48,301 bases of DNA from a bacterium. GTDB taxonomy: Bacteria; Patescibacteriota; Patescibacteriia; UBA2591; JAZDFN01. Below, one piece after another: positions 3,601-39,377 of the stretch. Numbering within the stretch: the first letter of the stretch is position 1; each line of letters starts with the position of its first letter. Location: contig JAZDFN010000019.1 in the NCBI GenBank assembly GCA_043807885.1, positions 1 to 48,301 on the forward strand, given 5' to 3'. The notes beneath the pieces were generated by a model. It saw nothing but the letters and a program-made list of their open reading frames with translations, was not told the origin of the DNA and did not search any database. The position numbers were made by a program, and so were the translations under genes.

Positions 3601-6600
3601 GACGACTATATCTGGTCATTTCAAACTCGGGATTCCAACCAGCTTTGCAAGTTGGACAAAGTGAAAGTGGTGCCGTTTAATGCCAAACTGGTCATCAAGG
3701 ACGCTTTGCAGAATTATTTAGGTGAAACCTACACCAAAGAAGATTCTTGCTTACTGCTTAATTCTGACAGCTATGATTGGGATTGGTGGTCGGAAGACGC
3801 AAGCAAAGGTAAGATTGACGATCAGGATAGCGATCCGAAAAACAGCAAGAACAATGTTCGGGCGGTTGGCGAATCTCCTTCGCCGATCAAGATCTATGCC
3901 CGCATTGAGTCGGAGAAAAAAGAAGGCTATGGCAATTTGATTATTGAGTTTGCCAATTTCGTGCTTTTGAAGCATTGGCCTTGCGGAGACGCCAATGGTC
4001 AGAACGTTTGTCCTAATGCTTTGATCGGCGCTGAATTCAACCGCCAAGTTGACCGGAAATCTTTCGGCGTCAATGAAAGCGACGGGTCGGTTAGTGGCGA
4101 CAGCATCCAAATTTATTCTTGCGACAAAGGGTCTGACTGCAACTTGAACATCTTGCCTTTCAGTAAAGGCAGTAATTGGGATAGAGAACAAAACTTGCGC
4201 GCTGATTTCTTTTTTGACGCCGGCACGGGCAATGAAGAAATCAATGTTTCCACGACGCCGTCGCTTTTGAAGATCGGCAATTATTACCGCATTATTTTCA
4301 AAGATAACAGCCAAGGCATCAAAAATTATTTGGGTGAAGAACTGGACAATCCCAACTATGACAGCGCTCGGGGCGAAGAGTGCGAAGGGGAGAGCGCTAT
4401 TTGCAAAAATTGTCTGAACCAAGGTTTGACTGTCGCTTGTTCGGAAACAACCAAAACCAATTGTTGCGGGGACAAGATCAAGGAGCCGGGCGAAGATTGC
4501 GACGATGGCAACAACTATCCGGGCGACGGCTGTTCCAATGTTTGTTTGAACGAAGGCTCTAATTTCAAAAATCAATGCGGCAATGGCAATGACCAGGATT
4601 TGGGCGAAGATCCGGGTTGCGACACGGCCAATGGTATTTTCTCGGGTTGCAACGATCATTGCGTTTTCAAGGGCTCTTTTGCTCCGGCGATTTGCGGGGA
4701 CGGCGTTGTTGACAAAGCTCATGGCGAAGAATGCGACCAGAAAGGCCAAGCCACTAATGGCGACGGCTGTTCTGGCAAGTGCTTGTTCGAGGGTATTATC
4801 AAAAATGAAGAAGGAGAAGAAGATCCAACCAAATCAACCAAAGAATGCGAACCCAACACCCAAGGCTGTGATGCCAAGGGCGTGCATCTGGGCACTTTGC
4901 CCAAGGTAACCTGCGGGAACGGCAAGATTGAAATTGGCGAAGATTGCGATGATGGTAATACGATTAAAGGCGACGGTTGTTCTGATTTCTGTCTGAATGA
5001 AGGTTCAAACAAGTTCTGGGGCAGTACTTGTGGCAACAAGGTCGTGGAAGGCCCGGAACTGGACAGTTATTCCTGGTATTTCAGGGTCAAAGAAACTCCC
5101 GGTCTCTGCCAATTGTCTAGCGTTGATGTCAAACCGGAGAAAATGACCGCTGAAGTCAATGAAACAATCAATTATCAGGCCGACGCTTATGGCGAAACTG
5201 ATGTTTGCGAGCCCAAAGGCCAGAAATTAAGGCCGGAAGATTATCTTTGGAATTGGTGGTCGGGCGACGCGAAAAAAGCGGTTGTTAATCCTTCAAGCAA
5301 TAATCAAACTGCGGTAATGACCATCGCGGAAACGGGCGATACTCCGGTTAAAGTTTTTGCTTCAGTTAAAGATAAATCCGGCGATAACGCCAAAAATGAT
5401 TTCGGCGAATTGTCCATTGTCGGCCAAGGCATCAAAGGCGGGGAATTGTGCGAGGCAAAAAAACCGAATTATCAATATAATCCCGATGCTCCGGCTGTTT
5501 GCCCGGTGGAAGTGCCGGATTGCGGTCCGGTTGAGATTTATCAGTGTTTGGTCGGTGATACTACCGGTGATGTTTGCAAAACTTATGATGATTGCCCTCG
5601 TTGTTGCTGTGAACCCAAGAAAAAATACAAGAACTTGACTTGTGAGCCAGACCAGGATGAATGCACTGGCTCAACCCGGGGCCTTTATTGCGGTTGCCAA
5701 AAAGACCTTGATTGCACCGAGGTTTATGGCGATAAATACGGCTGCGGATTTAGCGACCCGGCCAAATGCTGCCATCCTCGGCCGTGGATTACTGATTGCG
5801 ACCCGACTTTGGAGTTTACCGGCGTTCAATCGAGCGAAGATACTTGGTGCAAGAGCGGCAATAATAATTTCTGCCCCAATGGCTTAATCAAGGTTTATTT
5901 CGACCAAGTAATCAAACCCGAATCACTGGCCAACAATAATTTTGCAGTGGTTACTCGGTTAATCACCAAAGACGACGGAGAGTGTCCTAAAGGGACGATT
6001 CCGACCGGCCAGATTGATTTAGCTTTTAATAATTCTGAAGAAAATGGTTTTTTTAGCCGGGCTTTGGGCGCCCTGAATGATGGTTTGAATAAATTGTTTG
6101 GTCGTGAGGCCAAAGCGGAAATGGTTGAATTTTGCCAAGTAACCGGCGATATTTACGCTTATCAGTTGTCGGCCAAAGATGAAACAACCGAAGAAGTTAA
6201 ATATTTTACGGAAGCGATTTTCAGCCCTGATGAGAATTTGGAGTTCAGTCGGGTTTATTATGCTTTGGTGGCCGGTGATGATTTAGGAACAGGCGATGAG
6301 GGCGAGGGCGTGGTCAGCATTAAGGGTGTGGGTATGGATTTAAAAGAATCATCCAATGGCGGATGGGTGCCGGCCGGTCAAAAATCAGGCAACAACTTTT
6401 TTTGGTCATTCACGACCAAGGCCGATTTTTGTCCGATTGATCGCGTCAATGTTTACATTAACGGTAATGAAAAGCCGGCGATTTCCGATTTGTTCAATTG
6501 CACCAAGGATGATTGCCCCGACGACTTTAGCCAAAGCAAAACCGGCAACCAGCATCATTACTATGCCGAAGCGTTAGACAAGGACGGCCAAGAAATTAAA

Positions 6601-7995
6601 GCTGATTTTAAGTGGCAGGAGATTGATGCCGGTGGAGCGATTGAGGTAGGGGAGGTAGATACTGACCAACCCGACCAGAAAATAAGATATATTACGGCCA
6701 ATCCCAAAGAAGACGCCCAGGCCTATCTGGATGTTATTGCCAGCGAGGACTTTGCCAACAGCACGGCCAACCAGCTGATTGACGTCCGGGTTTTTGACTG
6801 CGCCAATCCTTGGCCGGCTTTGCCGGATGATATTTATTCTTGGCAGCCGTGGCAGGACGATGTTACCAATTTTCAATTTTATTACTGCCGCGACCGAGGC
6901 GCGATTGGCACAAGTGATGATTTACCGGCCTTGGCTAATCCGCCAGTCATTGTCAATGGTACGGGTGAAATCTTAAAAGAATTTCTTTTTGCTGTTTTAG
7001 ATAGCGACGTGGTTGGTTTCCGAGTTTTGAAAAATGCCGGCAAAAACCAAAAAATTTGTTCCAATGATTGCCAAAAGAGCTGCCTTGACGATACTGAGTG
7101 CAGTGGCGGTTATTGCCTCCGGCAATTTGCTCATTTATCACCTGGACTTTGGTATACTTTCCCTTGCAATGTGCCGGACCCGGGCAGTCCCCAGTCATTG
7201 GAAGTTGACGGCTACAAAGCCGTGCGCGATGGCCGGACAACTTATGCTTCCGCGGCCAATTCCACGCCCGCTGAAATTTTCACCAATATCTATCTGGTTT
7301 CTTACAATGAAGGCGCCAAGGCCGATACCCAAACCATCTACAACCAGATTCTTGGCCATTGGCATTTTAATACCAATTTGGATGATTATCGCGCCTGCCG
7401 GGATGCTGACGGCGAATTGTTGACTTTCGTGCCTTGCGATAATGATTTGGTTTGCCAACCATTGGGTTATTGCGACGCTCGGAAAACCAAAATTACCCGC
7501 GATACCATCCGCTTGGGCGATTTGAATGATCTGGCGCATCTTTTGGAGGCCTATTACAAAAAGAAAGAAGCCAAAGAAGGCCAGGGCGATTATCCGGCCT
7601 TGGCTGGCGGCAGTTATATTAAGGGCTTGTCCACCAGCAAATGGCCGATTTCTTGGGGTTTAACTTTGAAAGGCGAATTAGGCAAGGATTTGCCTCTTGA
7701 CCCGCTTAATCTTTTTGGCGCGGATTGCTCGTTAAAAGACGGTTATGAGGCCTCAACTTGCTGGAATGAAACCAAAAAAGATTTTTATTTGTCGCCTTAT
7801 TCCGATATTTATATTTATAAATATTTTCCCCTGACAACATCAGCGCCGGTGAATTACCATCTCTGTGCGGAATTGGAGTTTAGAGGAGATGGTTTTGGCT
7901 TGCATAATATGGCTGACCAGTGGTTCGGCTTGCCCGATTCCGCGGTTTGGGACTATAAACAGCTTAAATTCGGCCTTAGCCAATGCTATCCTTAA
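682..7995 (+). CDS. Giant (2437 aa) Cys-rich cell-surface protein with N-terminal TrbC/VirB2-like (T4SS_pilin-type) membrane head, Ig-like/IPT-TIG-like domains and Cys-rich repeats
   Basis: Uninterrupted 7.3 kb ORF. The N-terminus has a signal-like segment plus two hydrophobic helices around LYAGFLWLTSAGDEEKINKAKK. IPT/TIG-like segments: ITDVNPMDGAFGNLITIWGQDFG and LLDPSQGRFNDAITLQGINFG. Also CCNGVQDSGETGIDCGGEC, CDxDxxNPGCQxD modules and CGxGxxExGExCDDGNxxxGDGCSxxC repeats. Alternative start ATG 694 (MANKNKK). Confidence 0.85.
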   Translation: MTDLMANKNKKLFFVWLPMILAGFVFSALPAWGADFGLSQIGNAIGLGGDDPRVMIARIINIALGFLGVIALGFVLYAGFLWLTSAGDEEKINKAKKILISAVVGLAIILSAWGITLFVLQKLGAVTGVNINGGGDDNGDGNGPPASALLVKSITPQGEVQICNPVARIKFNKSIDPNTVEGNIIISANSSAGWRTIAGTLKIDGAWVEFRPNSDCPAPYGDKKCWQFNDDPTTEYSINVSNGVKAADGSSLWCGIGYECNGSFTILQGCFVDASSPIVRMTYPFNGQPICSDGTAVKALAKDDTGIGRVDFYVDNNYLDGDAPSEANSESFEAEVWWETGGLAIGSSHKLKAQAFDLDDNNAWSKETSVKIFPAHCCNGVQDSGETGIDCGGECLACTGDDCDSGDDNLDTCVQPDHQQCISQYCRADNCSCLALPLITDVNPMDGAFGNLITIWGQDFGQEAGKVIFLGGDENENCLGLAPKSVNSACTDYWQNDQIIIVVPSCGQTGPIKVVTNVGLYDRTDDWRGPDLGDFEINDIVRPGLCLLDPSQGRFNDAITLQGINFGAQAKQVWFGNPLGKNKIKAQAINNWSNQTITAVVPNLKSGKVPVYAEAFSGQFSNGVNFKVSSTDAGQKTPCDSNPGTSQCDADSDLCPAGEFCDSNTCLCAVGDGNDGNPPAGGEYCDADANNPGCQTDVNLCSTAKPFCDQLSCECQPYQDCSYVWSFTTAERTLCDSDSANPGCQADRNLCAEGEECREDCFCYAEETPPTPPDGEVEYCDSDAQNPGCQADADMCSAEQPFCDQLSCECQPYQSCKYVWTFKTGSPFVIEECVDYNKEGAPSPSPTPWSKVSSNVCINVLVSARFSEPVDEQSVKNNVKVQIDCSGAKSEADCPAEGDGCYWANSQCVSQPLAGYVHVYEWDTDNHYGAFKFYKGVINSSDRSENYLPNTKYQVTLIGGPNGIKTKAGVPLIDDYIWSFQTRDSNQLCKLDKVKVVPFNAKLVIKDALQNYLGETYTKEDSCLLLNSDSYDWDWWSEDASKGKIDDQDSDPKNSKNNVRAVGESPSPIKIYARIESEKKEGYGNLIIEFANFVLLKHWPCGDANGQNVCPNALIGAEFNRQVDRKSFGVNESDGSVSGDSIQIYSCDKGSDCNLNILPFSKGSNWDREQNLRADFFFDAGTGNEEINVSTTPSLLKIGNYYRIIFKDNSQGIKNYLGEELDNPNYDSARGEECEGESAICKNCLNQGLTVACSETTKTNCCGDKIKEPGEDCDDGNNYPGDGCSNVCLNEGSNFKNQCGNGNDQDLGEDPGCDTANGIFSGCNDHCVFKGSFAPAICGDGVVDKAHGEECDQKGQATNGDGCSGKCLFEGIIKNEEGEEDPTKSTKECEPNTQGCDAKGVHLGTLPKVTCGNGKIEIGEDCDDGNTIKGDGCSDFCLNEGSNKFWGSTCGNKVVEGPELDSYSWYFRVKETPGLCQLSSVDVKPEKMTAEVNETINYQADAYGETDVCEPKGQKLRPEDYLWNWWSGDAKKAVVNPSSNNQTAVMTIAETGDTPVKVFASVKDKSGDNAKNDFGELSIVGQGIKGGELCEAKKPNYQYNPDAPAVCPVEVPDCGPVEIYQCLVGDTTGDVCKTYDDCPRCCCEPKKKYKNLTCEPDQDECTGSTRGLYCGCQKDLDCTEVYGDKYGCGFSDPAKCCHPRPWITDCDPTLEFTGVQSSEDTWCKSGNNNFCPNGLIKVYFDQVIKPESLANNNFAVVTRLITKDDGECPKGTIPTGQIDLAFNNSEENGFFSRALGALNDGLNKLFGREAKAEMVEFCQVTGDIYAYQLSAKDETTEEVKYFTEAIFSPDENLEFSRVYYALVAGDDLGTGDEGEGVVSIKGVGMDLKESSNGGWVPAGQKSGNNFFWSFTTKADFCPIDRVNVYINGNEKPAISDLFNCTKDDCPDDFSQSKTGNQHHYYAEALDKDGQEIKADFKWQEIDAGGAIEVGEVDTDQPDQKIRYITANPKEDAQAYLDVIASEDFANSTANQLIDVRVFDCANPWPALPDDIYSWQPWQDDVTNFQFYYCRDRGAIGTSDDLPALANPPVIVNGTGEILKEFLFAVLDSDVVGFRVLKNAGKNQKICSNDCQKSCLDDTECSGGYCLRQFAHLSPGLWYTFPCNVPDPGSPQSLEVDGYKAVRDGRTTYASAANSTPAEIFTNIYLVSYNEGAKADTQTIYNQILGHWHFNTNLDDYRACRDADGELLTFVPCDNDLVCQPLGYCDARKTKITRDTIRLGDLNDLAHLLEAYYKKKEAKEGQGDYPALAGGSYIKGLSTSKWPISWGLTLKGELGKDLPLDPLNLFGADCSLKDGYEASTCWNETKKDFYLSPYSDIYIYKYFPLTTSAPVNYHLCAELEFRGDGFGLHNMADQWFGLPDSAVWDYKQLKFGLSQCYP
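2593..3153 (+). repeat. Four tandem Cys-knot-like coding modules inside the giant ORF (two are close copies)
   Basis: EYCDADANNPGCQTDVNLCSTAKPFCDQLSCECQPYQDCSYVWSFTT (2728-2868) versus EYCDSDAQNPGCQADADMCSAEQPFCDQLSCECQPYQSCKYVWTFKT (3013-3153). More diverged modules PCDSNPGTSQCDADSDLCPAGEFC and LCDSDSANPGCQADRNLCAEGEEC. Confidence 0.8.
4462..5004 (+). repeat. Cys-rich CGxG...DCDDGN..GDGCS..C repeats (myxococcal cysteine-rich repeat / DUF4215-like) inside the giant ORF
   Basis: CCGDKIKEPGEDCDDGNNYPGDGCSNVCLNEG; CGDGVVDKAHGEECDQKGQATNGDGCSGKCLFEG; CGNGKIEIGEDCDDGNTIKGDGCSDFCLNEG; one degenerate copy CGNGNDQDLGEDPGCD... Confidence 0.7.
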
Positions 7996-20661: not shown

Positions 20662-21324
20662 ATGATAGAAAAATTGAAACGAATAATTCCTATTAATATG
20701 GCCAAAAAATTACAAAGTATAGCTGTGGAAGAAAAACTTAAAACCTTGGGGCTGGCAGTGTTCACGCCTCGGGAATTTCAAGGCGTTTTTGATGTGCCCA
20801 AAAAAACCGCTTCCATGTTTATTCTAAACAACGTGAAAAGCGGCTTGTTTATAAAATTGCGCAACAACTTTTATGCGATTAAGGATAGCAACCCCGACTA
20901 TTCTTTTATCGCCAACAAATTATATCAACCTTCATATATATCGCTGGAAACCGCCTTATCGCATTATAATATTATTCCCGAAGTAGTATATGGCACCACT
21001 TCCATTACCACCAAAGCGCCTCGGGAATTCAAAACGCCGATAGGTAATTTCACCTACCAACACATTAAAACAGAAGCCTTTACCGGCTATCAATTGCAGG
21101 AAATTGATAGATATAAAGCACTGTTTGCGGAGCCGGAAAAAGCCCTGGCTGATTATTTATATTTTGTTGACCTTAAGAAAGTATCGCTTAACGATCGCTT
21201 AAAATTAAAGGGCGTTAATAGGATAAAATTGGTTGAATACGCCAAACTATTTAAACGGCCAAGCATGTTAAAACTGATTAATCAAATCTATGCTGACTCG
21301 CGCCAACCTCGAACAATTTACTAA
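20662..21324 (+). CDS. abiEi: AbiEi-family antitoxin/transcriptional regulator (type IV TA)
   Basis: wHTH-like N-terminus, conserved YISLETALSHYNIIPE block, overlaps the downstream AbiEii gene by 35 nt. Confidence 0.7.
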   Translation: MIEKLKRIIPINMAKKLQSIAVEEKLKTLGLAVFTPREFQGVFDVPKKTASMFILNNVKSGLFIKLRNNFYAIKDSNPDYSFIANKLYQPSYISLETALSHYNIIPEVVYGTTSITTKAPREFKTPIGNFTYQHIKTEAFTGYQLQEIDRYKALFAEPEKALADYLYFVDLKKVSLNDRLKLKGVNRIKLVEYAKLFKRPSMLKLINQIYADSRQPRTIY

Positions 21325-22024
21325 GCAGTCTCAGGCTAAGCTTGAGAATATTGTCAGGGAATACTGCCAACATTTGTTTTTGGCATATCTTTATCAACAG
21401 CCGGGCTCCGAGCATCTGCTGTTCAAAGGCGGTACGGCTTTGCGAATTATTTTCCATAGCTCTCGCTATTCAGAGGATTTGGATTTTACCGGGGTTAATA
21501 TAACCCAAAGGGAAGTGGAAGAAATTTTTACCAATACACTTGCTGCTTTAGAAAAAACCGGCGTTGGCGTTGAGCTGGAGGAAGGCAAGCCGACCACTGG
21601 AGGATATTTAGGCATTGTAGTTTTTCAAACATATGGAAAAAATATCCATATTCAAATTGAAGTTTCTTTAAGAAATGGCAAAAAAGCGAAAGGTATAAGC
21701 AAGCTAATTGAAAATGATTATATCCCCGCCTATACTCTTATTCACTTGGCAGAAGAAGAAATTATCAAAAGTAAGATTCAAGCTCTAATCAACCGCTATA
21801 AACCCAGAGATTTTTATGATTATTTTTTTCTACTCTCTGGCAATTTTCCGATTGTGAAAGAAAAAGAAAATCTAGCCAAAACTCTTAAATTATTACGAAG
21901 CTCAAAAATTGATTTTCGACGCGAACTTAGAGAATTTTTGCCGGCGGGCCACCTTATGCATCTGCGTAATTTCCCAAAGTTATTGGAGGAAAAAATTTTA
22001 AATTTTTTGGGTAAAGCGCGCTAA
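21290..22024 (+). CDS. abiEii: AbiEii/AbiGii-family nucleotidyltransferase toxin (DUF1814)
   Basis: LLFKGGTALRIIFHSSRYSEDLDFT matches the AbiEii NTase core motif (GGTAL...R.S.DLDF). C-terminal RDFYDYFFL block. Confidence 0.8.
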   Translation: MLTRANLEQFTKQSQAKLENIVREYCQHLFLAYLYQQPGSEHLLFKGGTALRIIFHSSRYSEDLDFTGVNITQREVEEIFTNTLAALEKTGVGVELEEGKPTTGGYLGIVVFQTYGKNIHIQIEVSLRNGKKAKGISKLIENDYIPAYTLIHLAEEEIIKSKIQALINRYKPRDFYDYFFLLSGNFPIVKEKENLAKTLKLLRSSKIDFRRELREFLPAGHLMHLRNFPKLLEEKILNFLGKAR

Positions 22025-26024: not shown

Positions 26025-26504
26025 ATGAACACCATCAAACCCACCGGCTGTTGTGAGCCGTTTGACCCCAAGCCCTGGGAAGACAAAGAAATCACTTGGC
26101 AGGACAAAATGTTCGTTAAAGACCACGTCACCAGTTTTTTACATATCCCCCTTAACTTCGGCCAGAAAGTGGTCAAAAACATGAAACTGATAGAATCAGC
26201 CGGCGCTGAAACGCCTTATCAATTAATGCTGACTGATGAAAAATCTCTCTGGGGTTCTGATATTTATATTGACGTGGGTAAAGCCGTGCCAAACGCGCAG
26301 ATGGCCACGCTTTCCGGCACCTTCTTGACCAAAGTTTTTGAAGGGCCTTACAAAAACGCGAGTCAGTGGGCGAAAGAGATGTCCGAGTACGTGAAGGGCA
26401 AAGGCAAAGAATTGAAAAAAATGTATTTTTCCTACACTACCTGCCCGAAGTGCGCCAAGGCCTACGGGAAAAATTACGTGGTGCTTTTCGCGCAGATAAA
26501 ATAA
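26025..26504 (+). CDS. Conserved hypothetical Cys-containing protein
   Basis: 159-aa ORF: N-terminal CCEPFDPKPWEDKEITW, C-terminal CPKCAKAYGKNY. No family named with confidence. Confidence 0.6.
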   Translation: MNTIKPTGCCEPFDPKPWEDKEITWQDKMFVKDHVTSFLHIPLNFGQKVVKNMKLIESAGAETPYQLMLTDEKSLWGSDIYIDVGKAVPNAQMATLSGTFLTKVFEGPYKNASQWAKEMSEYVKGKGKELKKMYFSYTTCPKCAKAYGKNYVVLFAQIK

Positions 26505-26520
26505 TTTCCGCATTAATATC

Positions 26521-26573
26521 GTAGGGACAGAACAGTGTTCTGTCCTTGGGACAGGACGATGTCCTGTCCCTAC
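26521..26573 (+). repeat. Twin covarying hairpins with an alternative outer helix in the 3' region of the 26025 gene
   Basis: GGACAGAAC-AGT-GTTCTGTCC (26525-26545) and GGGACAGGAC-GAT-GTCCTGTCCC (26548-26570). GTAGGGACAG (26521-26530) can alternatively pair with CTGTCCCTAC (26564-26573). Confidence 0.8.
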
Positions 26574-26580
26574 AACGGCG

Positions 26581-26607
26581 AAAAACAAGATTTAATTCTT
26601 GTTTTTT
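26581..26607 (+). terminator. A/T-rich intrinsic terminator
   Basis: AACAAGA-TTTAAT-TCTTGTT stem-loop flanked by an A-run and a T-run. Confidence 0.5.
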
Positions 26608-26613
26608 GTTATT

Positions 26614-26655
26614 GACCCGCCAAGATTTTGCTTCGCAAAAACTTAGGCGGGCAAG
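26614..26655. repeat. GC-clamped long hairpin GACCCGCC...GGCGGGCAA; same ends as the 39427-39446 micro-hairpin but with a nested hairpin in the loop
   Basis: CCCGCC-AAG-a-TTTTGC-TTC-GCAAAA-a-CTT-a-GGCGGG. Compare GACCCGCC-TTG-GGCGGGCAA at 39427-39446. Confidence 0.7.
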
Positions 26656-26724
26656 ACGAGGATTTAAAGGTTAGTTTAAAATAATAAACCTCGCAATATT
26701 GTCAAAGAGGGGTTACCTGTATGT

Positions 26725-26752
26725 TTGACAAAATCCTCTTTTCTGCTATTCT
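26725..26752 (+). promoter_or_regulatory. Candidate promoter of the first surface-protein paralogue
   Basis: TTGACA 26725-26730, 16-nt spacer ending TGc, TATTCT 26747-26752. Strong SD AAGGAGGAG precedes ATG 26828. Confidence 0.45.
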
Positions 26753-26827
26753 TGCCTTAAGGAGGGCAATCAAGCCGTTCCTTGAAAATTTAACCATTAT
26801 CTCAAAACCTTTATTAAGGAGGAGAAA

Positions 26828-29209
26828 ATGTCACGCAAGAATTTGTTTATAGCGACCATAATTATGGCGTTATGCTGGTTAAGTTCCATTGGTCAAGCCG
26901 AACAAATTGATTTTGCTCTGCGTCTTGAGCCAAGCCAAAACACTTTCAAGCCAAATGATGCTTTGCGGGTTTTCCTGGATTTGAATATTAACCAGGCGCC
27001 TGTTGTGTCGGACCTTTACTTTATTATAGCGTCGCCAAATGGATACTATTCCGCTTTTGATTGGCAAAAAGGCATAAGGCCCTTGTTACTGGCCTATCCT
27101 TTTTCCCAGAAATTGTCCATCCAAGACATACTGTTGTTAGAAATTATTTTGCCCAGCGATTTCCCGCCGATTGCCAATGCGGGCGATTATATTTTCGCTA
27201 TTGGCGCTTTTAAGCCCAACACCGGCAATTTGATTTCCAATATCGGCCAAGCAAGTTTTCATTATGAACAAGAAACCGAAGAACCATGGATTGATTTTAC
27301 TGACATTCCGGATTATGGCTCCCCCGGAGTATTGAAAGGTAAAGTCGGCGGCGTTAATTCGGCTGATTACGGAATATTGGTCTATATTGAAGTTGAGACC
27401 GTTTGGTGGACTAAACCGTATTTTAACGCACCGTTAACTACGATTAATACCGATGACACTTGGAGCTGTAATATCACGACTGGCGGCAATGATGCCTATG
27501 CTACTAAAATAGCTGCTTATTTAGTGCCTGTTGGCATTGACCCATTCCAATATCAATGCGGTCCCTGTTACCAGTTGCCGAAAATTCCCGAAGCAGTCGC
27601 TTCTAAGCAGGCGGACCGCAGTCCGCCGCAAAGAACAGTTGATTTTTCCGGTTATCAATGGAATATCAAACGGCGCGATTTTCCGGCCGGTCCCGGTCCC
27701 AATTATTTCTCGGATAAAAAAGAGGATATTTGGGTTGATGGAGAAGGCCTGCATTTGACCATTAAGGAACATGATGGCAAATGGAATTGCACTGAGGCGA
27801 TTAACACCGATTCCTTGGGCTATGGCACCTATGTTATCCAGACCCGCGGCCGGATAGATAATATGGGTTATATTCCGGTATTCGGCATCTTTACCTGGTG
27901 CACCGAAGCCAAGGAATACAACTACAAAGAAATTGACATTGAAGCGGCTCGCTGGGGCCATCTTGATGACACCAACTTTCAGTATGTGGTTCAGCCCTGT
28001 TCCCAATGTCCTGGTTGCGGCGATAATTGTGCCCGCTTTAATGTTGAATTGAGCGATGAAGATAGCAACCTGACCTACTACATAGCTTGGAAGTCGGGCC
28101 AAGCGGAATTTGCCACTTATTACGGTGAACATGGTAAAGGTACTCCGCCTGCCGAGGATTTAATTTATCATTGGGTCCATGCCAGTTCAGATGTCCCGCC
28201 AGCCGGTGGTGAAAACTTCCGATTTAATTTCTGGCTTTTTGGCGGCAATGCTCCGGATAAAGGAGAGCAGGAAGTAGTTGTTACTTATTTTGATTGGCGC
28301 GAAGATTATGTATTCCCCACGCCAACCCCAACTATGACTAAAACGATTACGCCAACCCATACTCCGATTTATCCATCTATGACCAAAACTGCCACCGCCA
28401 CTGCTACTCCGACTATGACAGCCACTAAAACCGCTACCGCCACCTTAACCAAGACGGCAACACCGACTCCGACGCCAACTCCGGGCTTGGAAATTACTAC
28501 TTATCCACCATATGGTTCGCCGGGTTATTTACAAGGCAAAGCGTTAGGCGTTAATCCCCAAGATTATAAGATAACGGTTTACATTTTTGTTCCGACTTCT
28601 TATCCGGTTGGCTGGTGGGTTAAACCGACTTTGGCTAATCCATTCACTTTGATTAATCCTGCCGGCGATTGGAGCTGTAATATTGCTACTGGCGGCGTTG
28701 ATACGGAAGCGACTATTCTGCGAGCTTATTTGATTCCTAATGGCGTTAATCCGCCTCTGGCAAACGGTTGGAATGAATTACCGGAAATTCCCGAAGCGGT
28801 CGCTATGGCAGAAGTATTTAGAACGCCAAACCCGACAGCTACGCCGAGTAATACGCCAACCCCGCCCGACCCTTGGATTATTTTCAGTTATGTGCCATCT
28901 AAAGGCAGTTATGATAATCTGCAAGGAACCGTAGGCGGTGTTAGTCCAATGAGCGATTATAAAGTGATGGTCTATATTTACTATTACGGTTGGTGGACCA
29001 AACCTTATTTTGACACGCCATTGACCTATATTGCCAGTAACGGCAGTTGGACTTGCGACATCACTACCGGTGGCTATGATCAGGATGCCACCAAAATCGC
29101 CGCTTATTTAGTACCGGCCAGCATTGACGCCAACAAATATCAATGTGGCGGTAGTTCAAATTTGCCGGACGTTCCCGAGTCAGTCGCCTTTATTGAAGTT
29201 GATAGGTAA
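26828..29209 (+). CDS. Secreted multidomain protein: shared N-terminal domain, novel about 110-aa repeat (x3), GH16-like beta-glucanase/lectin domain, Thr/Pro linkers
   Basis: Signal peptide MSRKNLFIATIIMALCWLSSIGQA. GH16-type catalytic motif KEIDIEAARWG (E-I-D-I-E). TPTPT linkers. Repeat units at about 27284-27602, 28484-28806 and 28868-29206. Confidence 0.85.
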   Translation: MSRKNLFIATIIMALCWLSSIGQAEQIDFALRLEPSQNTFKPNDALRVFLDLNINQAPVVSDLYFIIASPNGYYSAFDWQKGIRPLLLAYPFSQKLSIQDILLLEIILPSDFPPIANAGDYIFAIGAFKPNTGNLISNIGQASFHYEQETEEPWIDFTDIPDYGSPGVLKGKVGGVNSADYGILVYIEVETVWWTKPYFNAPLTTINTDDTWSCNITTGGNDAYATKIAAYLVPVGIDPFQYQCGPCYQLPKIPEAVASKQADRSPPQRTVDFSGYQWNIKRRDFPAGPGPNYFSDKKEDIWVDGEGLHLTIKEHDGKWNCTEAINTDSLGYGTYVIQTRGRIDNMGYIPVFGIFTWCTEAKEYNYKEIDIEAARWGHLDDTNFQYVVQPCSQCPGCGDNCARFNVELSDEDSNLTYYIAWKSGQAEFATYYGEHGKGTPPAEDLIYHWVHASSDVPPAGGENFRFNFWLFGGNAPDKGEQEVVVTYFDWREDYVFPTPTPTMTKTITPTHTPIYPSMTKTATATATPTMTATKTATATLTKTATPTPTPTPGLEITTYPPYGSPGYLQGKALGVNPQDYKITVYIFVPTSYPVGWWVKPTLANPFTLINPAGDWSCNIATGGVDTEATILRAYLIPNGVNPPLANGWNELPEIPEAVAMAEVFRTPNPTATPSNTPTPPDPWIIFSYVPSKGSYDNLQGTVGGVSPMSDYKVMVYIYYYGWWTKPYFDTPLTYIASNGSWTCDITTGGYDQDATKIAAYLVPASIDANKYQCGGSSNLPDVPESVAFIEVDR
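28316..28483 (+). repeat. Thr/Pro/Ala-rich low-complexity linker coding region
   Basis: PTPTPTMTKTITPTHTPIYPSMTKTATATATPTMTATKTATATLTKTATPTPTPTP. Confidence 0.8.
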
Positions 29210-29234
29210 AAGTGATCTTTTGATTTGAAATTAC

Positions 29235-29266
29235 GCCGACTCTGTTTTGCAGAGTCGGCTTTTTTA
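29235..29266 (+). terminator. Intrinsic terminator
   Basis: GCCGACTCTG-TTTTG-CAGAGTCGGC followed by TTTTTT. Confidence 0.85.
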
Positions 29267-29267
29267 T

Positions 29268-29295
29268 TTGACAAAAAGTTAAAAAAATGTAAGCT
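29268..29295 (+). promoter_or_regulatory. Candidate promoter of the second paralogue
   Basis: TTGACA 29268-29273, 16 nt, TAAGCT 29290-29295 (T-12, A-11 and T-7 conserved), preceded by TG. SD GAAGGAGAG precedes ATG 29359. Confidence 0.4.
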
Positions 29296-29358
29296 TTATA
29301 TACAGTTCATTGACAATTAATTAGTAACAAAAAACAGCTTTTCGCGAAGGAGAGTATC

Positions 29359-32031
29359 ATGAAAAGAAAGTTTTTAACCGCTTTGATTATCATCGTAATT
29401 TGTTGGCCTGTTTTTGCCATTAGCCAAAGCGAAAAAATCGCCTTGAATTTGTATCTAGAACCAATTCAGACAGTTTTTCACCCCAATGAAACCTTTAAGG
29501 TCATATTGGATGTGGGTATTAATGAAACCCCGATTATAACCGACTTCTACTTTATTATGGCGGCTTGGAATTCGGATAGATTCTATTCTTCCCCTGATTG
29601 GCAAGAAGGATTAAAGCCGTTACTGTTGGCTTATCCATTTCCCTTGCCTTTGTCAATTCATGGCATTTTAGCGTTGGAAATTACCTTGCCCGAAGATTTG
29701 CCGCCCATTGAAAGCTTTGGCAGTTACACTTTCGCCGTTGGCGCTTTTCAGCAGGGAGTTCTGGTTTCCAATATCGGTCGCGCTGATTTCTATTACCAAG
29801 AATATGTTCCGGAACCGACGCCGACAACAACGGCTACTGCCACAGAAATTTCAACCATAACCGCAACTCCAATCGTGACATTAACTAACACACTGACCCC
29901 GACCGCAACCGTTACTCCGACCAAAATGGCTACGATTACCTTGACGCCAACGCCAACCCAAACATTAACTCTAACCGCAACTCCAACTAAAACCCAGACG
30001 CCGACGACGACTCAGACAGCCACTGTTACTTTGACGCCAACACTAACCCCGACACCAACTCCCTATTCAGACTGGCCTATGTTCCGCCATGATGCTAAAC
30101 ACACTGGCAGAAGCATATATTTGGGGCCAGAAACTCCAGGACTATTATGGAAGTTTAAAACCGATAATGGAGTATTCTCTTCGCCAACCCTTGGCCCGGA
30201 TGGCACTGTTTATGTCGGTTCTGAAGATGGAAATTTTTATGCCCTGAATCTGGATGGCAGTTTGAAATGGAAATTTGAAACTCCAAAAGAAATTATGTGT
30301 TCACCGGCAATTAATTTTGACGGGACTGTCTATTTTGGCTCTATGGACGGTGATTTTTACGCTCTGAACCCTGACGGCAGTTTGAAATGGAAACTTGAAG
30401 ATGATTACTATGCTTATGCTTCGCCGAATATTGGTGCGGATAACACCGTTTATATTGCTTGCATGAGCGGCATTGTCTACGCTCTGAATCCGGACGGCAC
30501 TATTAAATGGCAATTTACGGCCGATGACGATGATATCAAATCATCACCGGCCATTGGCGCTGATGGCACTATCTATTTTGGTGACGTTACAAAAAGTTTC
30601 TACGCTCTGAATCCGGATGGCAGTTTGCAATGGAAATTTTCAGGGATAAACAACCACGTTGAGTCTTCGCCGGCTATTGGTCCGGATGGCACCATTTATA
30701 TTGGTGATTATAATTCAACCAATCAAGACAATAATTATCTCTATGCCCTGAATCCGGACGGTACCCTTAAGTGGCAGTTTAAGACCAGTAATTGGATTTT
30801 ATCTTCTCCAGCTATTGGCGCTGATGGCACTATCTATATTGTTTACCATATGGGCGGTGATCTCTATGCCCTGAATCCGGACGGCACAGAAAAATGGGAA
30901 TTTGAGATGAAAAATTGGGTCTATTCTTCGCCAACCCTTGGCGCTGATGGCACTATCTATATTGGTTCCATTGATAATTCTCTCTATGCTATAAACTCAG
31001 ATGGCACCTACAAATGGGAATTTAAGACTGATGGCTACGTTTTTTCTTCACCGACTATTGGTTCAAATGGCACTATCTATGTTGGTTCTGAGGATGGCTA
31101 TATTTACGCCATAAATACAAATGGAACAACGCCAACTATAACACCAACCCAGACGGCAACATTAACAAATACGCCAACTCAAACTCCAACGTTAACCCAA
31201 ACGCAGACCCAGACAGCCACTCAAACATCTACACCGACAGCAACGCCAACCCAAACGCAGACCCAGACAGCAACGCCAACCTGGACGCCAACGGGAACAC
31301 CGGGAATGGAATACACTTATGTTCCAGCTTACGGCTCCACTAGTAATCTGGAAGGTAAGGCCTATGGCGTTAATTTTAGTGATTATAAAGTAGTGGTTTA
31401 CATCAATGTGCCTGATTCCTATCCGACCGGCTGGTGGGTAAAACCTTATTACAACAATCCTTATACCACCATTGACGTTAATACCGGTGAATGGATCTGC
31501 GATATCACCACTAATACTTATGACAGCAAAGCCAATATTATCAGAGCCTATCTGATACCCAACAACGGCAATCCGCCGCTGGCTAATGGCTGGTGCTCAC
31601 CGCCTGATGTTACCAATGATCTGGCTTCAGTTGAGGCAGTGCGTTCGCAAATAAGTCCGACGCCGACTCCCACGCCGACTCCCAGCGGGCCTTGGATTGA
31701 ATTTGGCTATGTCCCGCCTATAGGCAACTACGATGATGTGGAAGGAGCAGCCGGCAATGTCAATACTGCGGATTACCGGTCGGCTGTTTACATTTATGTT
31801 CCCGGCTGGGGTTGGGTCTCTAAACCCTACCTTAATTGTCTAACGGTCACTTTGGGTGAAGACGGCTTTTGGGCTTGTGATTATACCACTGGCGGGAGCG
31901 ACCAAAACGCCACGAAAATCAGGGCCTACTTAGTTCCATCTGATCTTGATATGAGCCAGTACCAATGCAGTAAATGTTCTTCACCACCGGATATTCCCGA
32001 AGCTCTGGATTGGGTAGAAATTACCAGATAA
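29359..32031 (+). CDS. Secreted multidomain protein: shared N-terminal domain, Thr/Pro linker, PQQ/BamB-like beta-propeller, novel repeat (x2)
   Basis: Signal peptide MKRKFLTALIIIVICWPVFAIS. N-terminal 150 aa are collinear with the 26828 protein. At least 8 blades of the form YALNPDGSLKWKF...SSPAIG.DGTIY. C-terminal repeats at about 31303-31645 and 31687-32028. Confidence 0.88.
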   Translation: MKRKFLTALIIIVICWPVFAISQSEKIALNLYLEPIQTVFHPNETFKVILDVGINETPIITDFYFIMAAWNSDRFYSSPDWQEGLKPLLLAYPFPLPLSIHGILALEITLPEDLPPIESFGSYTFAVGAFQQGVLVSNIGRADFYYQEYVPEPTPTTTATATEISTITATPIVTLTNTLTPTATVTPTKMATITLTPTPTQTLTLTATPTKTQTPTTTQTATVTLTPTLTPTPTPYSDWPMFRHDAKHTGRSIYLGPETPGLLWKFKTDNGVFSSPTLGPDGTVYVGSEDGNFYALNLDGSLKWKFETPKEIMCSPAINFDGTVYFGSMDGDFYALNPDGSLKWKLEDDYYAYASPNIGADNTVYIACMSGIVYALNPDGTIKWQFTADDDDIKSSPAIGADGTIYFGDVTKSFYALNPDGSLQWKFSGINNHVESSPAIGPDGTIYIGDYNSTNQDNNYLYALNPDGTLKWQFKTSNWILSSPAIGADGTIYIVYHMGGDLYALNPDGTEKWEFEMKNWVYSSPTLGADGTIYIGSIDNSLYAINSDGTYKWEFKTDGYVFSSPTIGSNGTIYVGSEDGYIYAINTNGTTPTITPTQTATLTNTPTQTPTLTQTQTQTATQTSTPTATPTQTQTQTATPTWTPTGTPGMEYTYVPAYGSTSNLEGKAYGVNFSDYKVVVYINVPDSYPTGWWVKPYYNNPYTTIDVNTGEWICDITTNTYDSKANIIRAYLIPNNGNPPLANGWCSPPDVTNDLASVEAVRSQISPTPTPTPTPSGPWIEFGYVPPIGNYDDVEGAAGNVNTADYRSAVYIYVPGWGWVSKPYLNCLTVTLGEDGFWACDYTTGGSDQNATKIRAYLVPSDLDMSQYQCSKCSSPPDIPEALDWVEITR
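29812..30063 (+). repeat. Thr/Pro-rich linker coding region
   Basis: EPTPTTTATATEISTITATPIVTLTNTLTPTATVTPTKMATITLTPTPTQTLTLTATPTKTQTPTTTQTATVTLTPTLTPTPTP. Confidence 0.8.
30064..31125 (+). repeat. Tandem beta-propeller blade repeats (PQQ-like)
   Basis: Recurrent (F/L)YALNPDG(S/T)LKW(K/Q)F ... SSP(A/T)(I/L)G.DGT(I/V)Y(I/V)G at roughly 40-aa periodicity. Confidence 0.8.
31126..31302 (+). repeat. Thr/Pro/Gln-rich linker coding region
   Basis: TTPTITPTQTATLTNTPTQTPTLTQTQTQTATQTSTPTATPTQTQTQTATPTWTPTGTP. Confidence 0.8.
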
Positions 32032-32060
32032 AAGTTTGGTCTTTAATTTTAAAAATATTG

Positions 32061-32091
32061 CCGGTTCGCTTTTTAGTGAACCGGTTTTTTT
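32061..32091 (+). terminator. Intrinsic terminator
   Basis: CCGGTTCGC-TTTTTA-GTGAACCGG (one G-U) followed by TTTTTTT. Confidence 0.8.
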
Positions 32092-32126
32092 ATTGTATTT
32101 TTTTGTTTTTCTGTTAAAATAAGATT

Positions 32127-33179
32127 ATGGAACTGAAACCGCAAATTGAGCAATTGACCGATAAAACCGCTGCGTTGCGCGAGTTTTTTGATTTGGAGAA
32201 AATGGCCCATGAAATCAGGGAATTGGGAGGCGAGATGGCCAGTCCGAATTTTTGGCATAATCAAAACGAGGCCAAACACAAAGCCCAGCTGCTCAAAGAA
32301 TTGCAAGCGGAATATGATGGTTATCAAGACCTGATTAAGGAAAGCCAAGAGTTGGCTAAAAATCCGGATGAAAAATCATTGAAAGATTTAGCAAGAAAAT
32401 ATCAGCAGTTTGAATTGAAATTATTGTTTAATGGCCCGTATGACAGAGAGAACGCGGTTTTGGCGATTCATGCCGGCGCCGGCGGGGTAGATGCCCAGGA
32501 CTGGGCCGAAATGCTTTTGCGGATGTATTTAAGATATGCTGAACAAAAAAATTGGCCAGCCAAGATTTTGGATATTTCCAAGGGCGGGGAAGCCGGCGTG
32601 AAAAGCGTGACCATGGAAATCAGCGGCCGCTACGCTTACGGCCACTTGAAAGCCGAGAGTGGCGTGCATCGTTTGGTTCGCATTTCGCCGTTTGACGCCG
32701 AGAAGATGCGCCATACTTCCTTCGCCTTGGTTGATGTTTTGCCGGAACTGACCGAAGTTAAAGAGGTGGAAGTGAAGCCGGATGATTTGCGGATTGATGT
32801 TTTTCGGGCCGGCGGGCACGGCGGTCAGAGTGTCAATACCACCGATTCAGCGGTCCGGATCGTCCATTTGCCAACCGGCATTACGGTTTCCTGCCAGAAC
32901 GAACGCTCGCAGGCCCAGAACAAAGAAACCGCCCTGAAAATCTTAAAATCCAAGCTTTATCAATATTATCAAACCGAACAGGAAGAAGAGCGCCAGCGCT
33001 TAAGAGGGGAGTTTAAGGAAGCGGCCTGGGGCAATCAGATCCGTTCTTATGTGCTTCAACCCTACCAAATGGTCAAAGACCACCGCACGGACTTGGAAAC
33101 CGCTAATGTGGAAAAGGTTTTGGACGGCGATTTGGATGATTTTATTGAGGCGTATTTGCGCCAGAGTGTTAAAAAATAA
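32127..33179 (+). CDS. prfB: Peptide chain release factor 2, encoded in a single frame (no programmed +1 frameshift)
   Basis: SPF motif (RISPFD), GGQ motif (GGHGGQSVN), collinear with E. coli RF2 as I recall it. The ORF is continuous through the region where the frameshift site would lie (ALREFFDLEKM). Confidence 0.93.
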   Translation: MELKPQIEQLTDKTAALREFFDLEKMAHEIRELGGEMASPNFWHNQNEAKHKAQLLKELQAEYDGYQDLIKESQELAKNPDEKSLKDLARKYQQFELKLLFNGPYDRENAVLAIHAGAGGVDAQDWAEMLLRMYLRYAEQKNWPAKILDISKGGEAGVKSVTMEISGRYAYGHLKAESGVHRLVRISPFDAEKMRHTSFALVDVLPELTEVKEVEVKPDDLRIDVFRAGGHGGQSVNTTDSAVRIVHLPTGITVSCQNERSQAQNKETALKILKSKLYQYYQTEQEEERQRLRGEFKEAAWGNQIRSYVLQPYQMVKDHRTDLETANVEKVLDGDLDDFIEAYLRQSVKK

Positions 33180-39306: not shown

Positions 39307-39377
39307 CGGGGTGTCGTATACCGGTAGTACGCATGCATGGGGTGCATGTAGACGGAGTTCAATTCTCCGCACCCCGA
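39307..39377 (+). tRNA. tRNA-Pro, anticodon GGG (CCA not encoded)
   Basis: Hand fold. Acceptor CGGGGTG/CACCCCG plus A73. U8. D-arm GTAT-ACCGGTA-GTAC. Anticodon arm CATGC-AT[GGG]GT-GCATG. 4-nt variable loop TAGA. T-arm CGGAG-TTCAATT-CTCCG. The C1-G72/A73 combination is typical of bacterial tRNA-Pro. Confidence 0.85.

Follow-up and report, generated by a model that had tools for sequence, protein, structure and literature searches.

Here we analyzed a tandem pair of genes, designated A and B, on a 48,301-nucleotide stretch of a patescibacterial genome (contig JAZDFN010000019.1; this whole stretch is referred to as the window), together with the domain that both encoded proteins carry in repeated form. 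The domain, about 113 amino acids long and given the working name DOM, occurs in five copies, three in A and two in B. Our analyses confirmed that DOM is a genuine discrete domain without a curated family, and suggested that it is a new, uncurated module similar to a carbohydrate-binding module (CBM), probably for β-1,3-glucans, an assignment that we regard as reasonably probable. To judge from the enzymes to which it is fused, its ligand is most likely a β-1,3- or mixed-linkage β-glucan.

Protein A consists of a signal peptide, an N-terminal domain, one DOM, a predicted divergent domain of glycoside hydrolase (GH) family 16, a Thr/Pro-rich linker and two further DOMs, of subtype b and then a. 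In protein B, the signal peptide and N-terminal domain are followed by a Thr/Pro-rich linker, an eight-bladed propeller, a second such linker and the same terminal order of DOM b and DOM a.

Identification and Fold of DOM

The five copies align over about 113 residues with 23 invariant columns, at pairwise identities of 38–56%. A preliminary description of this DNA, made from the sequence alone, had also counted five copies, and the boundaries drawn here with hidden Markov models (HMMs) lie within a few codons of those it gave. A profile built from the five copies retrieved 149 database proteins with E-values down to 5e-34, so the repeat is far beyond chance. No relevant match to DOM was obtained in Pfam-A or NCBIfam with the whole proteins, nor in Pfam with single copies at E ≤ 10, and searches of PDB sequences with the DOM profile gave no match. 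Precomputed Pfam annotations were absent from 119 of the 120 DOM homologues listed, the remaining one being annotated as GH17. In the literature, we found no description of the domain, either by its motif WWTKP or among accessory domains of GH17 and GH16.

An AlphaFold2 model of the last copy of A (residues 681–793), calculated from a 49-sequence alignment, showed an all-β sandwich with a mean predicted local distance difference test (pLDDT) score of 94.5 and a predicted template modeling (TM) score (pTM) of 0.88. A Foldseek search of the PDB with this model returned nothing at E < 1e-3; the best matches were antibody V domains and neocarzinostatin, at E ∼ 0.03, TM scores of 0.4–0.5 and root-mean-square deviations of 6–9 Å, and the BFVD database gave only generic matches of the immunoglobulin (Ig) or fibronectin type III (Fn3) kind at E > 0.02. 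The model indicates that DOM is an Ig-like β-sandwich forming an autonomous module of about 113 residues. The repeat had been described as unplaceable in any known family, with a Foldseek comparison of a single modeled repeat proposed as a check, and the sequence and structure searches agreed with that view.

The copies belong to two subtypes, a with a QYQC loop and b with an NPPLANGW loop, and the earlier observation of these two loop types (there called YQCG-type and NPPLANGW), with both proteins ending in b and then a, was reproduced. The distinction lies mainly in the loop, overall identity being a weak separator (51% between the first a copy and the b copy of A). The loop of subtype b is the mainstream one of the family. 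Among 347 DOM instances, the QYQC loop was found in A and B only; other Cys-containing loop variants occurred in about 30 further instances, with just one case among the 67 copies that follow a GH17 domain. The copies of A and B are 46–60% identical to outside members, which makes them as similar to these as they are among themselves. At the DNA level, the repeats detected within the two genes were limited to the codon repeats of the linkers, the blades of the propeller and short remnants (∼65–80%). Recent duplication or gene conversion of DOM copies was ruled out on this ground, and the duplications must be old, because only remnants of similarity are left in the DNA.

Distribution and Domain Partners

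When 1.84 billion cluster representatives (clusters at 50% identity) were searched exhaustively with HMMER, DOM was detected in 2380 clusters at E < 1e-3, 672 of them at E < 1e-30, with one to seven copies per protein. Searching a single genome for each GTDB species, with a 10-sequence alignment as query, yielded 79 DOM loci. Nine were archaeal (Methanosarcinales including anaerobic methanotrophs of the ANME-2 group, Methanobacteriota, and Bathyarchaeota) and nine came from the candidate phyla radiation (CPR), namely Nealsonbacteria, Saccharibacteria, Paceibacterota, Falkowbacteria, and Parcubacteria; further bacterial loci belonged to Planctomycetota, Acidobacteriota, Chloroflexota, Desulfobacterota, Ignavibacteria, Armatimonadota, Zixibacteria, Kiritimatiellia/Verrucomicrobiota, Firmicutes, and Proteobacteria. 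Most of these loci belong to uncultured lineages of anaerobes, sediments and groundwater, to CPR bacteria or to archaea. Whole DOMs of archaea and CPR bacteria are 40–60% identical. A hydrophobic N-terminal segment was present in 89 of 113 long DOM members, which is consistent with their export.

Pfam recognized GH17 in 29 of 73 long DOM members. Of the 150 best-scoring matches listed, 134 were newly retrieved; clustering of their non-DOM segments gave 50 proteins with GH17 and 38 with a GH16-like domain of about 230 residues as in A, and a further small cluster included canonical-GH16 proteins. Altogether, about two thirds of the best-scoring members examined were fused to a GH17 or GH16-type domain, and some 90% of the DOM genes in the 79 species loci encoded either GH17-DOM or DOM-GH16-like proteins. 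DOM directly follows the catalytic domain in the former and directly precedes it in the latter, with essentially linker-free junctions, and the first DOM of A is likewise joined directly to its GH16-like domain. In three loci from Saccharibacteria and Nealsonbacteria (L046, L050, and L058), DOM stands N-terminal to GH17, the opposite of the order in most phyla. The profile of the GH17 partner matched the Rhizomucor miehei β-1,3-glucanosyltransferase 4WTP (E = 5e-55) and the Formosa GH17 6FCG (E = 5e-11).

For the GH16-like partner, protein A alone gave no match to Pfam PF00722 (GH16) and an E-value of 0.008 for NCBIfam BglS, and a weak Pfam GH16 match was seen in 1 of the 18 members of its clade. 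The clade profile matched structures of Bacillus/Paenibacillus 1,3-1,4-β-glucanases (lichenases) at E = 7e-8 with the ExDxE motif aligned, and the E, D and E of this motif were invariant in 18 of 18 members; in A it reads EIDIE (residues 368–372, nucleotides 27929–27943), the motif from which a GH16-like middle had first been suspected. By these comparisons, the middle of A is predicted to be a divergent GH16 with an intact ExDxE. It resembles the GH16 lichenases and laminarinases (1MAC, 1BYH, and 1GBG) in the aligned motif, a jelly-roll signature, and differs from them in forming a very divergent clade in which DOM, throughout the 79 species loci, always stands at the N-terminus.

The DOM-GH16-like part of A (residues 152–492) is collinear with archaeal and deltaproteobacterial cassettes at 53–58% identity. 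Since such identity extends from A to archaea, the cassette appears to be conserved and mobile across domains of life. Archaeal proteins of 1226–1557 amino acids from ANME-2/Methanobacteriota (L039, 5866–10536; L077, 4145–7822) open with a cassette 57% identical to that of A, after which long uncharacterized C-terminal regions follow.

The preliminary description had offered DOM as an anchoring or a glycan-binding module that displays exchangeable heads and could matter for an episymbiotic lifestyle. As an anchor in the cell envelope, the b-a tandem would bind the cell's own wall or S-layer, or a host surface. Several features of the pair fit this idea: the organism is a member of the Patescibacteria, two DOMs lie at the extreme C-terminus of A and B behind long Thr/Pro linkers, an arrangement common among wall-binding repeats, and B keeps the tandem though it has no glycosidase. 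Moreover, no other anchor is seen in A or B, as Pfam and NCBIfam scans detected no SLH, LysM, LPXTG or CWB2 module and, by sequence reading, the residues before Cys in the signal peptides (MALC and IVIC) are not a canonical lipobox. The family as a whole argues otherwise. DOM is not CPR-specific (9 of 79 loci) and is found in at least 2380 clusters from many bacterial and archaeal phyla, among diderms, monoderms, CPR bacteria and archaea with unrelated envelopes, and most members carry one DOM only, which directly adjoins GH17 or the divergent GH16 and lies either before or after the catalytic domain. Relatives also have separate tethers: the stand-alone DOM proteins P0010, P0034, P0038, and P0085 begin with lipobox-like N-termini of their own (FGLGC, LVTSC, SLVAC, and VFMGC), and P0231 (GH17-DOM-CarboxypepD_reg-SLH) brings its own SLH. 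Because the tether thus lies elsewhere, in a lipid or in SLH, DOM would be the binder and not the anchor. Furthermore, no gene family occurred more than three times among 119 open reading frames (ORFs) flanking 39 DOM loci, so there is no conserved operon, polysaccharide utilization locus, wall or S-layer gene context, and the pair is missing from the syntenic site of closely related genomes. We therefore consider an anchoring role unlikely; of the two functions first proposed, glycan binding is plausible and backed by domain co-occurrence, whereas cell-surface anchoring and its link to episymbiosis were not supported.

Function of DOM

Accessory binding modules on glycoside hydrolases form a familiar class, to which new CBM families are added regularly. 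GH17 is a TIM barrel and GH16 a jelly roll, that is, two unrelated catalytic folds, and one accessory domain on unrelated folds with a common substrate class is the classical signature of a CBM. Because the GH17 and GH16-like partners differ in fold and share the β-1,3/mixed-linkage glucan substrate class, DOM is likely to be a CBM. It has the discrete, independent fold expected of one, as judged from the model of an isolated copy and from stand-alone and linker-separated copies, and it is attached to carbohydrate-active enzymes in the GH17 and GH16-type fusions. It also occurs outside direct enzyme fusion, behind long Thr/Pro linkers, in B, and as stand-alone proteins. In the 347 instances from many phyla, P10, G20, I36, W42, W43, K45, P46, T67, G68, D71, A74, and L81 were at least 90% conserved. 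Such conservation appears far above expectation for an inert Ig-like spacer, and the near-invariant WW-K-P and TTGG-D-AT motifs probably contact the ligand. Precedents exist in unrelated glucan-binding β-sandwiches appended to bacterial GH17 (PMC9026390) and GH16 (bioRxiv 10.1101/2023.09.07.556657).

As a glucan-binding module, DOM would serve as the non-catalytic partner of secreted β-1,3-glucan-active enzymes in bacteria and archaea. A would be a secreted glucanase with the canonical DOM-GH16-like cassette of the family, followed by a flexible Thr/Pro linker and two extra DOMs that would add avidity for polymeric glucan. B, its tandem paralogue, would have kept the leader, the N-terminal domain, the linkers and the DOM b-a pair, while the eight-bladed PQQ-like propeller replaced the catalytic cassette; the role we infer for it is that of a different head, brought to the same glycan by the common targeting module.

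A number of points weigh against this assignment. The proposed function is deduced by guilt by association; inert spacer domains, too, typically have an Ig-like fold, and no CBM was found among the top 50 Foldseek PDB matches of DOM. The zero-length junctions with GH17 and the GH16-like domain could mean that DOM is a structural support packed on the catalytic domain, and B has no glycosidase. GH16 spans many specificities. In addition, sugar-utilization genes were not enriched beside DOM genes among the 119 flanking ORFs.

Some of these points would suit a non-binding Ig-like support or spacer that stabilizes, orients or oligomerizes the catalytic domain, with extra copies as a stalk. The structural neighbors are only generic Ig V or Fn3-type domains and the catalytic junctions have no linker; moreover, Ig-like spacers have been described beside GH16 and surface glycan-binding proteins of Bacteroidota (bioRxiv 10.1101/2023.09.07.556657), and the activity of VvGH17 requires the region after its catalytic domain (PMC9026390). 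However, Ig spacers are usually poorly conserved, whereas here W42, W43, K45, T67, and D71 reach 90% conservation or more over many phyla, and archaeal and CPR copies retain 40–60% identity over the whole domain. That DOM serves GH17 and GH16-like domains, whose folds are unrelated, and does so at opposite termini, also speaks against a spacer, and DOM as a stand-alone lipoprotein, or far from any enzyme as in B, would be unexpected for a mere support. On balance, a purely structural role seems improbable.

Alternatively, DOM might bind another glycan, a metal ion or a protein, so that its link with GH17 and GH16 would reflect shared localization and not substrate. It does occur in proteins with PKD, Big_2, Flg_new_2, Calx-beta, NosD/β-helix, DUF642, cohesin and dockerin-type domains, the specificities of GH16 are many, and the TTGG-D loop could conceivably be a metal site. 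Yet a β-1,3-glucan-type catalytic domain accompanies DOM in some two thirds of the top-scoring members that were examined, and in roughly 90% of the species loci; this speaks against another ligand, which we judge quite unlikely.

Comparison with known systems is in keeping with a glucan-binding role. CBM39 is the N-terminal β-1,3-glucan-recognition domain of insect βGRP/GNBP3 (PDB 3AQX, 3AQY, 2KHA, and 3IE4), an Ig-like β-sandwich of about 100–110 residues located directly N-terminal to a GH16-type domain. The DOM-GH16-like cassette has the same architecture, which makes CBM39 the best functional analogue of what DOM may do, by architectural analogy only. Homology was rejected, with an hhalign probability of 1.3% against 3AQY and no match of DOM in Pfam, which includes a CBM39 model, and the CBM39 structures were not among the top 50 Foldseek matches of DOM. 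The sole aligned stretch, a 12-residue G-W--DIT segment (dGxWxCDITTG at DOM 57–68, EAGHWARDITKP at CBM39 42–53), was not significant. CBM39 is, to our knowledge, an invertebrate family; DOM, unlike it, is found in prokaryotes and has GH17 as a further partner.

Uk-C of the Vibrio vulnificus GH17 is a β-sandwich of about 150 residues, C-terminal on an endo-β-1,3-glucanase behind a linker of about 45 residues, which binds laminarin and barley β-glucan through Trp residues and has reported homologues in Vibrio and other marine bacteria (PMC9026390). It occupies the position of DOM in GH17-DOM proteins and is unrelated in sequence; as a candidate homologue (VvGH17 451–615), it was rejected at an hhalign probability of 0.1%. 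The Christiangramia forsetii modules CBMxx, a sandwich that forms a cleft and is related to a module appended to GH50, and CBMyy, a β-barrel like 7KV7, bind laminarin as well (bioRxiv 10.1101/2023.09.07.556657). DOM would resemble them in multivalent glucan capture and enzyme targeting; they appear to have other folds and come from marine Bacteroidota (bioRxiv 10.1101/2023.09.07.556657), whereas DOM belongs mainly to uncultured anaerobe, sediment and groundwater lineages. CBMxx, CBMyy and 7KV7 were not among the top 50 Foldseek PDB matches of DOM, none of which reached E < 1e-3. Taken at the level of sequence and architecture, DOM most plausibly works like a CBM but outside every family tested.

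A broader version of the glucan-binding reading, which we put forward only tentatively, is that DOM is a new CBM family for β-1,3-glucans throughout bacteria and archaea whose b-a tandem was co-opted in this organism as a portable targeting cassette. DOM would then apparently have spread with its GH16-like partner by horizontal transfer, the cassette of this CPR bacterium being 53–58% identical to those of ANME-2 or other archaea, and the tandem would deliver glucanase and propeller to a surface that bears glucan, for instance the matrix of a biofilm or the cell wall of a host or a eukaryote.

Organization of the Gene Pair

The features of the pair are collected in Table 1. Protein A is identical in sequence to NCBI MFH1225910.1, annotated "hypothetical protein," and protein B to MFH1225911.1, annotated "PQQ-binding-like beta-propeller repeat protein." BLASTP aligned the two in three collinear blocks, comprising the N-termini (A3–153 with B2–153, 49% identity, E = 1e-41), the C-terminal ∼300 residues with the b-a cassette (A497–793 with B592–890, 52% identity, E = 1e-95), and the internal first DOM of A, which matched the two B copies at E = 2e-26 and 4e-21. 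Together with the different domain matches of their middles, these blocks bear out the earlier picture of tandem paralogous proteins of secreted type, built on a common frame of signal peptide, N-terminal domain and Thr/Pro linkers with exchangeable middles.

Table 1. Features of genes A and B and their immediate surroundings in the window
Feature	Position	Strand	Basis or remark
Promoter-like site TTGACA-16-TATTCT with TG, 5' of gene A	26725..26752	+	Consensus scan
Shine-Dalgarno AAGGAGGAG before ATG at 26828 (gene A)	26816..26824	+	Direct sequence reading
Gene A, 793 aa	26828..29209	+	ORF list; MFH1225910.1
Predicted Sec signal peptide of A (MSRK, hydrophobic core, GQA/EQ)	26828..26896	+	Sequence reading
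N-terminal domain of A, ∼128 aa	26897..27280	+	53% identical to B counterpart
DOM copy 1 of A, aa 152–264, subtype a, QYQC loop	27281..27619	+	HMM boundaries, alignment
Predicted divergent GH16-like catalytic domain of A, aa 265–496	27620..28315	+	Profile against PDB, motif
Thr/Pro-rich linker of A	28316..28477	+	Composition scan; ACN/CCN codon repeats
DOM copy 2 of A, aa 551–665, subtype b, NPPLANGW loop	28478..28822	+	HMM boundaries, alignment
DOM copy 3 of A, aa 681–793, subtype a (modeled copy)	28868..29206	+	HMM boundaries, alignment
Terminator-like hairpin 3' of gene A, 11-bp stem and T-run	29235..29269	+	Hairpin search
Shine-Dalgarno AAGGAGAG before gene B	29347..29354	+	Direct sequence reading
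Gene B, 890 aa	29359..32031	+	ORF list; MFH1225911.1
N-terminal domain of B, paralogue of that of A	29431..29808	+	BLASTP, alignment
Long Thr/Pro-rich linker of B	29809..30063	+	Composition scan; ACN/CCN codon repeats
8-bladed PQQ-like β-propeller of B	30064..31152	+	Pfam, blade motifs, DNA repeats
DOM copy 1 of B, aa 647–762, subtype b	31297..31644	+	HMM boundaries, alignment
DOM copy 2 of B, aa 777–890, subtype a	31687..32028	+	HMM boundaries, alignment
Terminator-like hairpin 3' of gene B, 11-bp stem and T-run	32060..32095	+	Hairpin search

Both ORFs are preceded by a strong Shine-Dalgarno sequence. In MFH1225910.1, the start is Met13 of A (26828–26866 region), by which the charged n-region of the signal peptide is lost; because the strong Shine-Dalgarno stands before the upstream ATG and the longer form restores a normal n-region, we place the start of A there. 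On sequence reading, the leaders of A and B each combine an RK-rich n-region, a hydrophobic core (in A with a mean Kyte-Doolittle value of 2.84 across 11 residues) and a small-residue cleavage motif, and both proteins are predicted to be secreted. The promoter-like site is a consensus match only, the total of such sites in the region being not above shuffles. The hairpins after the two genes are alike in form (GCCGACTCTG...CAGAGTCGGC and GCCGGTTCGC...GTGAACCGGT, each with a T-run).

Homologues of the N-terminal domain beyond A and B were found neither in the clustering of non-DOM segments nor in a metagenome scan, nor in a word-indexed search, which appears to return only proteins near the query length. 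Its AlphaFold2 model, derived from two sequences, is all-β and of low confidence (pLDDT 61), with generic Foldseek matches (Ig/Fn3, a GH3 Fn3-like domain, CARDB, RbmA, and NPC2).

The propeller of B matched PF13570 at E = 6.5e-64 (216.8 bits against a cut-off of 133) and PF13360 at E = 3.7e-33. Eight YA[LI]N blade motifs and DNA repeats with a period of about 120 nucleotides were found, where eight or more PQQ-like blades had been anticipated. It is like PQQ-like/BamB-like propeller proteins (PF13570 and PF13360) in its eight blades and Pfam matches, and unlike them in being fused to the N-terminal domain of a glucanase paralogue and a DOM tandem. Among the 73 long DOM members scanned, a single one had a PQQ-like propeller match; this member is B itself, since the E-values agree and B belongs to the set.

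Genomic Context

The gene for release factor 2 (RF2, prfB) adjoins the pair at 32127–33179 (+) as a single uninterrupted ORF of 350 residues, and the region that we take to correspond to the programmed +1 frameshift site of E. coli reads in frame here (REFFDLEK). Its product is 58–62% identical to RF2 of Patescibacteria, Parcubacteria, Kuenenbacteria, Falkowbacteria, and Uhrbacteria, which, together with the pilin-like giant protein described below, makes it likely that the contig comes from a member of the Patescibacteria. Relatives whose RF2 is 82–90% identical have different genes upstream of prfB (L080–L083 against 26500–32130 of the window), namely CobA-like and DNA_binding_1 genes or a 155-residue orphan. 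Because close relatives differ at this site, the A/B pair is best seen as an accessory, lineage-specific insertion and not as a conserved CPR feature.

GC skew was negative (-0.07 and -0.06) only across A and B (28001–32000) and positive in the rest of the window, which probably reflects the ACN/CCN codons of the Thr/Pro linkers and not a strand switch. Elsewhere in the window, an ORF of 2437 residues (682–7995, +) combines an N-terminus like a type IV secretion system pilin (PF18895) with Big_5, Big_7, TIG and DUF4215 domains; pilin-like surface giants with Ig domains are common in CPR genomes. An AbiEii nucleotidyltransferase toxin (21290–22024, +; PF08843, E = 1e-24) overlaps the end of an upstream 220-residue ORF without a Pfam match, and the two (20662–22024) resemble a toxin-antitoxin pair of type IV. 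A single tRNA, tRNA-Pro(GGG), was detected in the window, at 39307–39377 (+), and Rfam gave no match in the window at gathering thresholds.

Implications

The DOM finding in itself says nothing specific on episymbiosis. For this genome, it would mean that a "hypothetical" and a "PQQ-like" gene become a paralogous pair of glycan-targeted secreted proteins. If DOM does bind β-glucan, it would represent an unclassified CBM family, present in thousands of proteins from uncultured bacteria and archaea, that current annotation of carbohydrate-active enzymes would miss, and, as a small, well-folding module, it might be of use for glucan detection or enzyme engineering. Its presence would also mark out a clade of GH17 and the divergent clade of GH16 as glucanases that are secreted and targeted to their substrate, in lineages from sediment, groundwater and anaerobic digesters, and could thereby improve the inference of carbon cycling from metagenome-assembled genomes, including those of CPR bacteria and ANME archaea.

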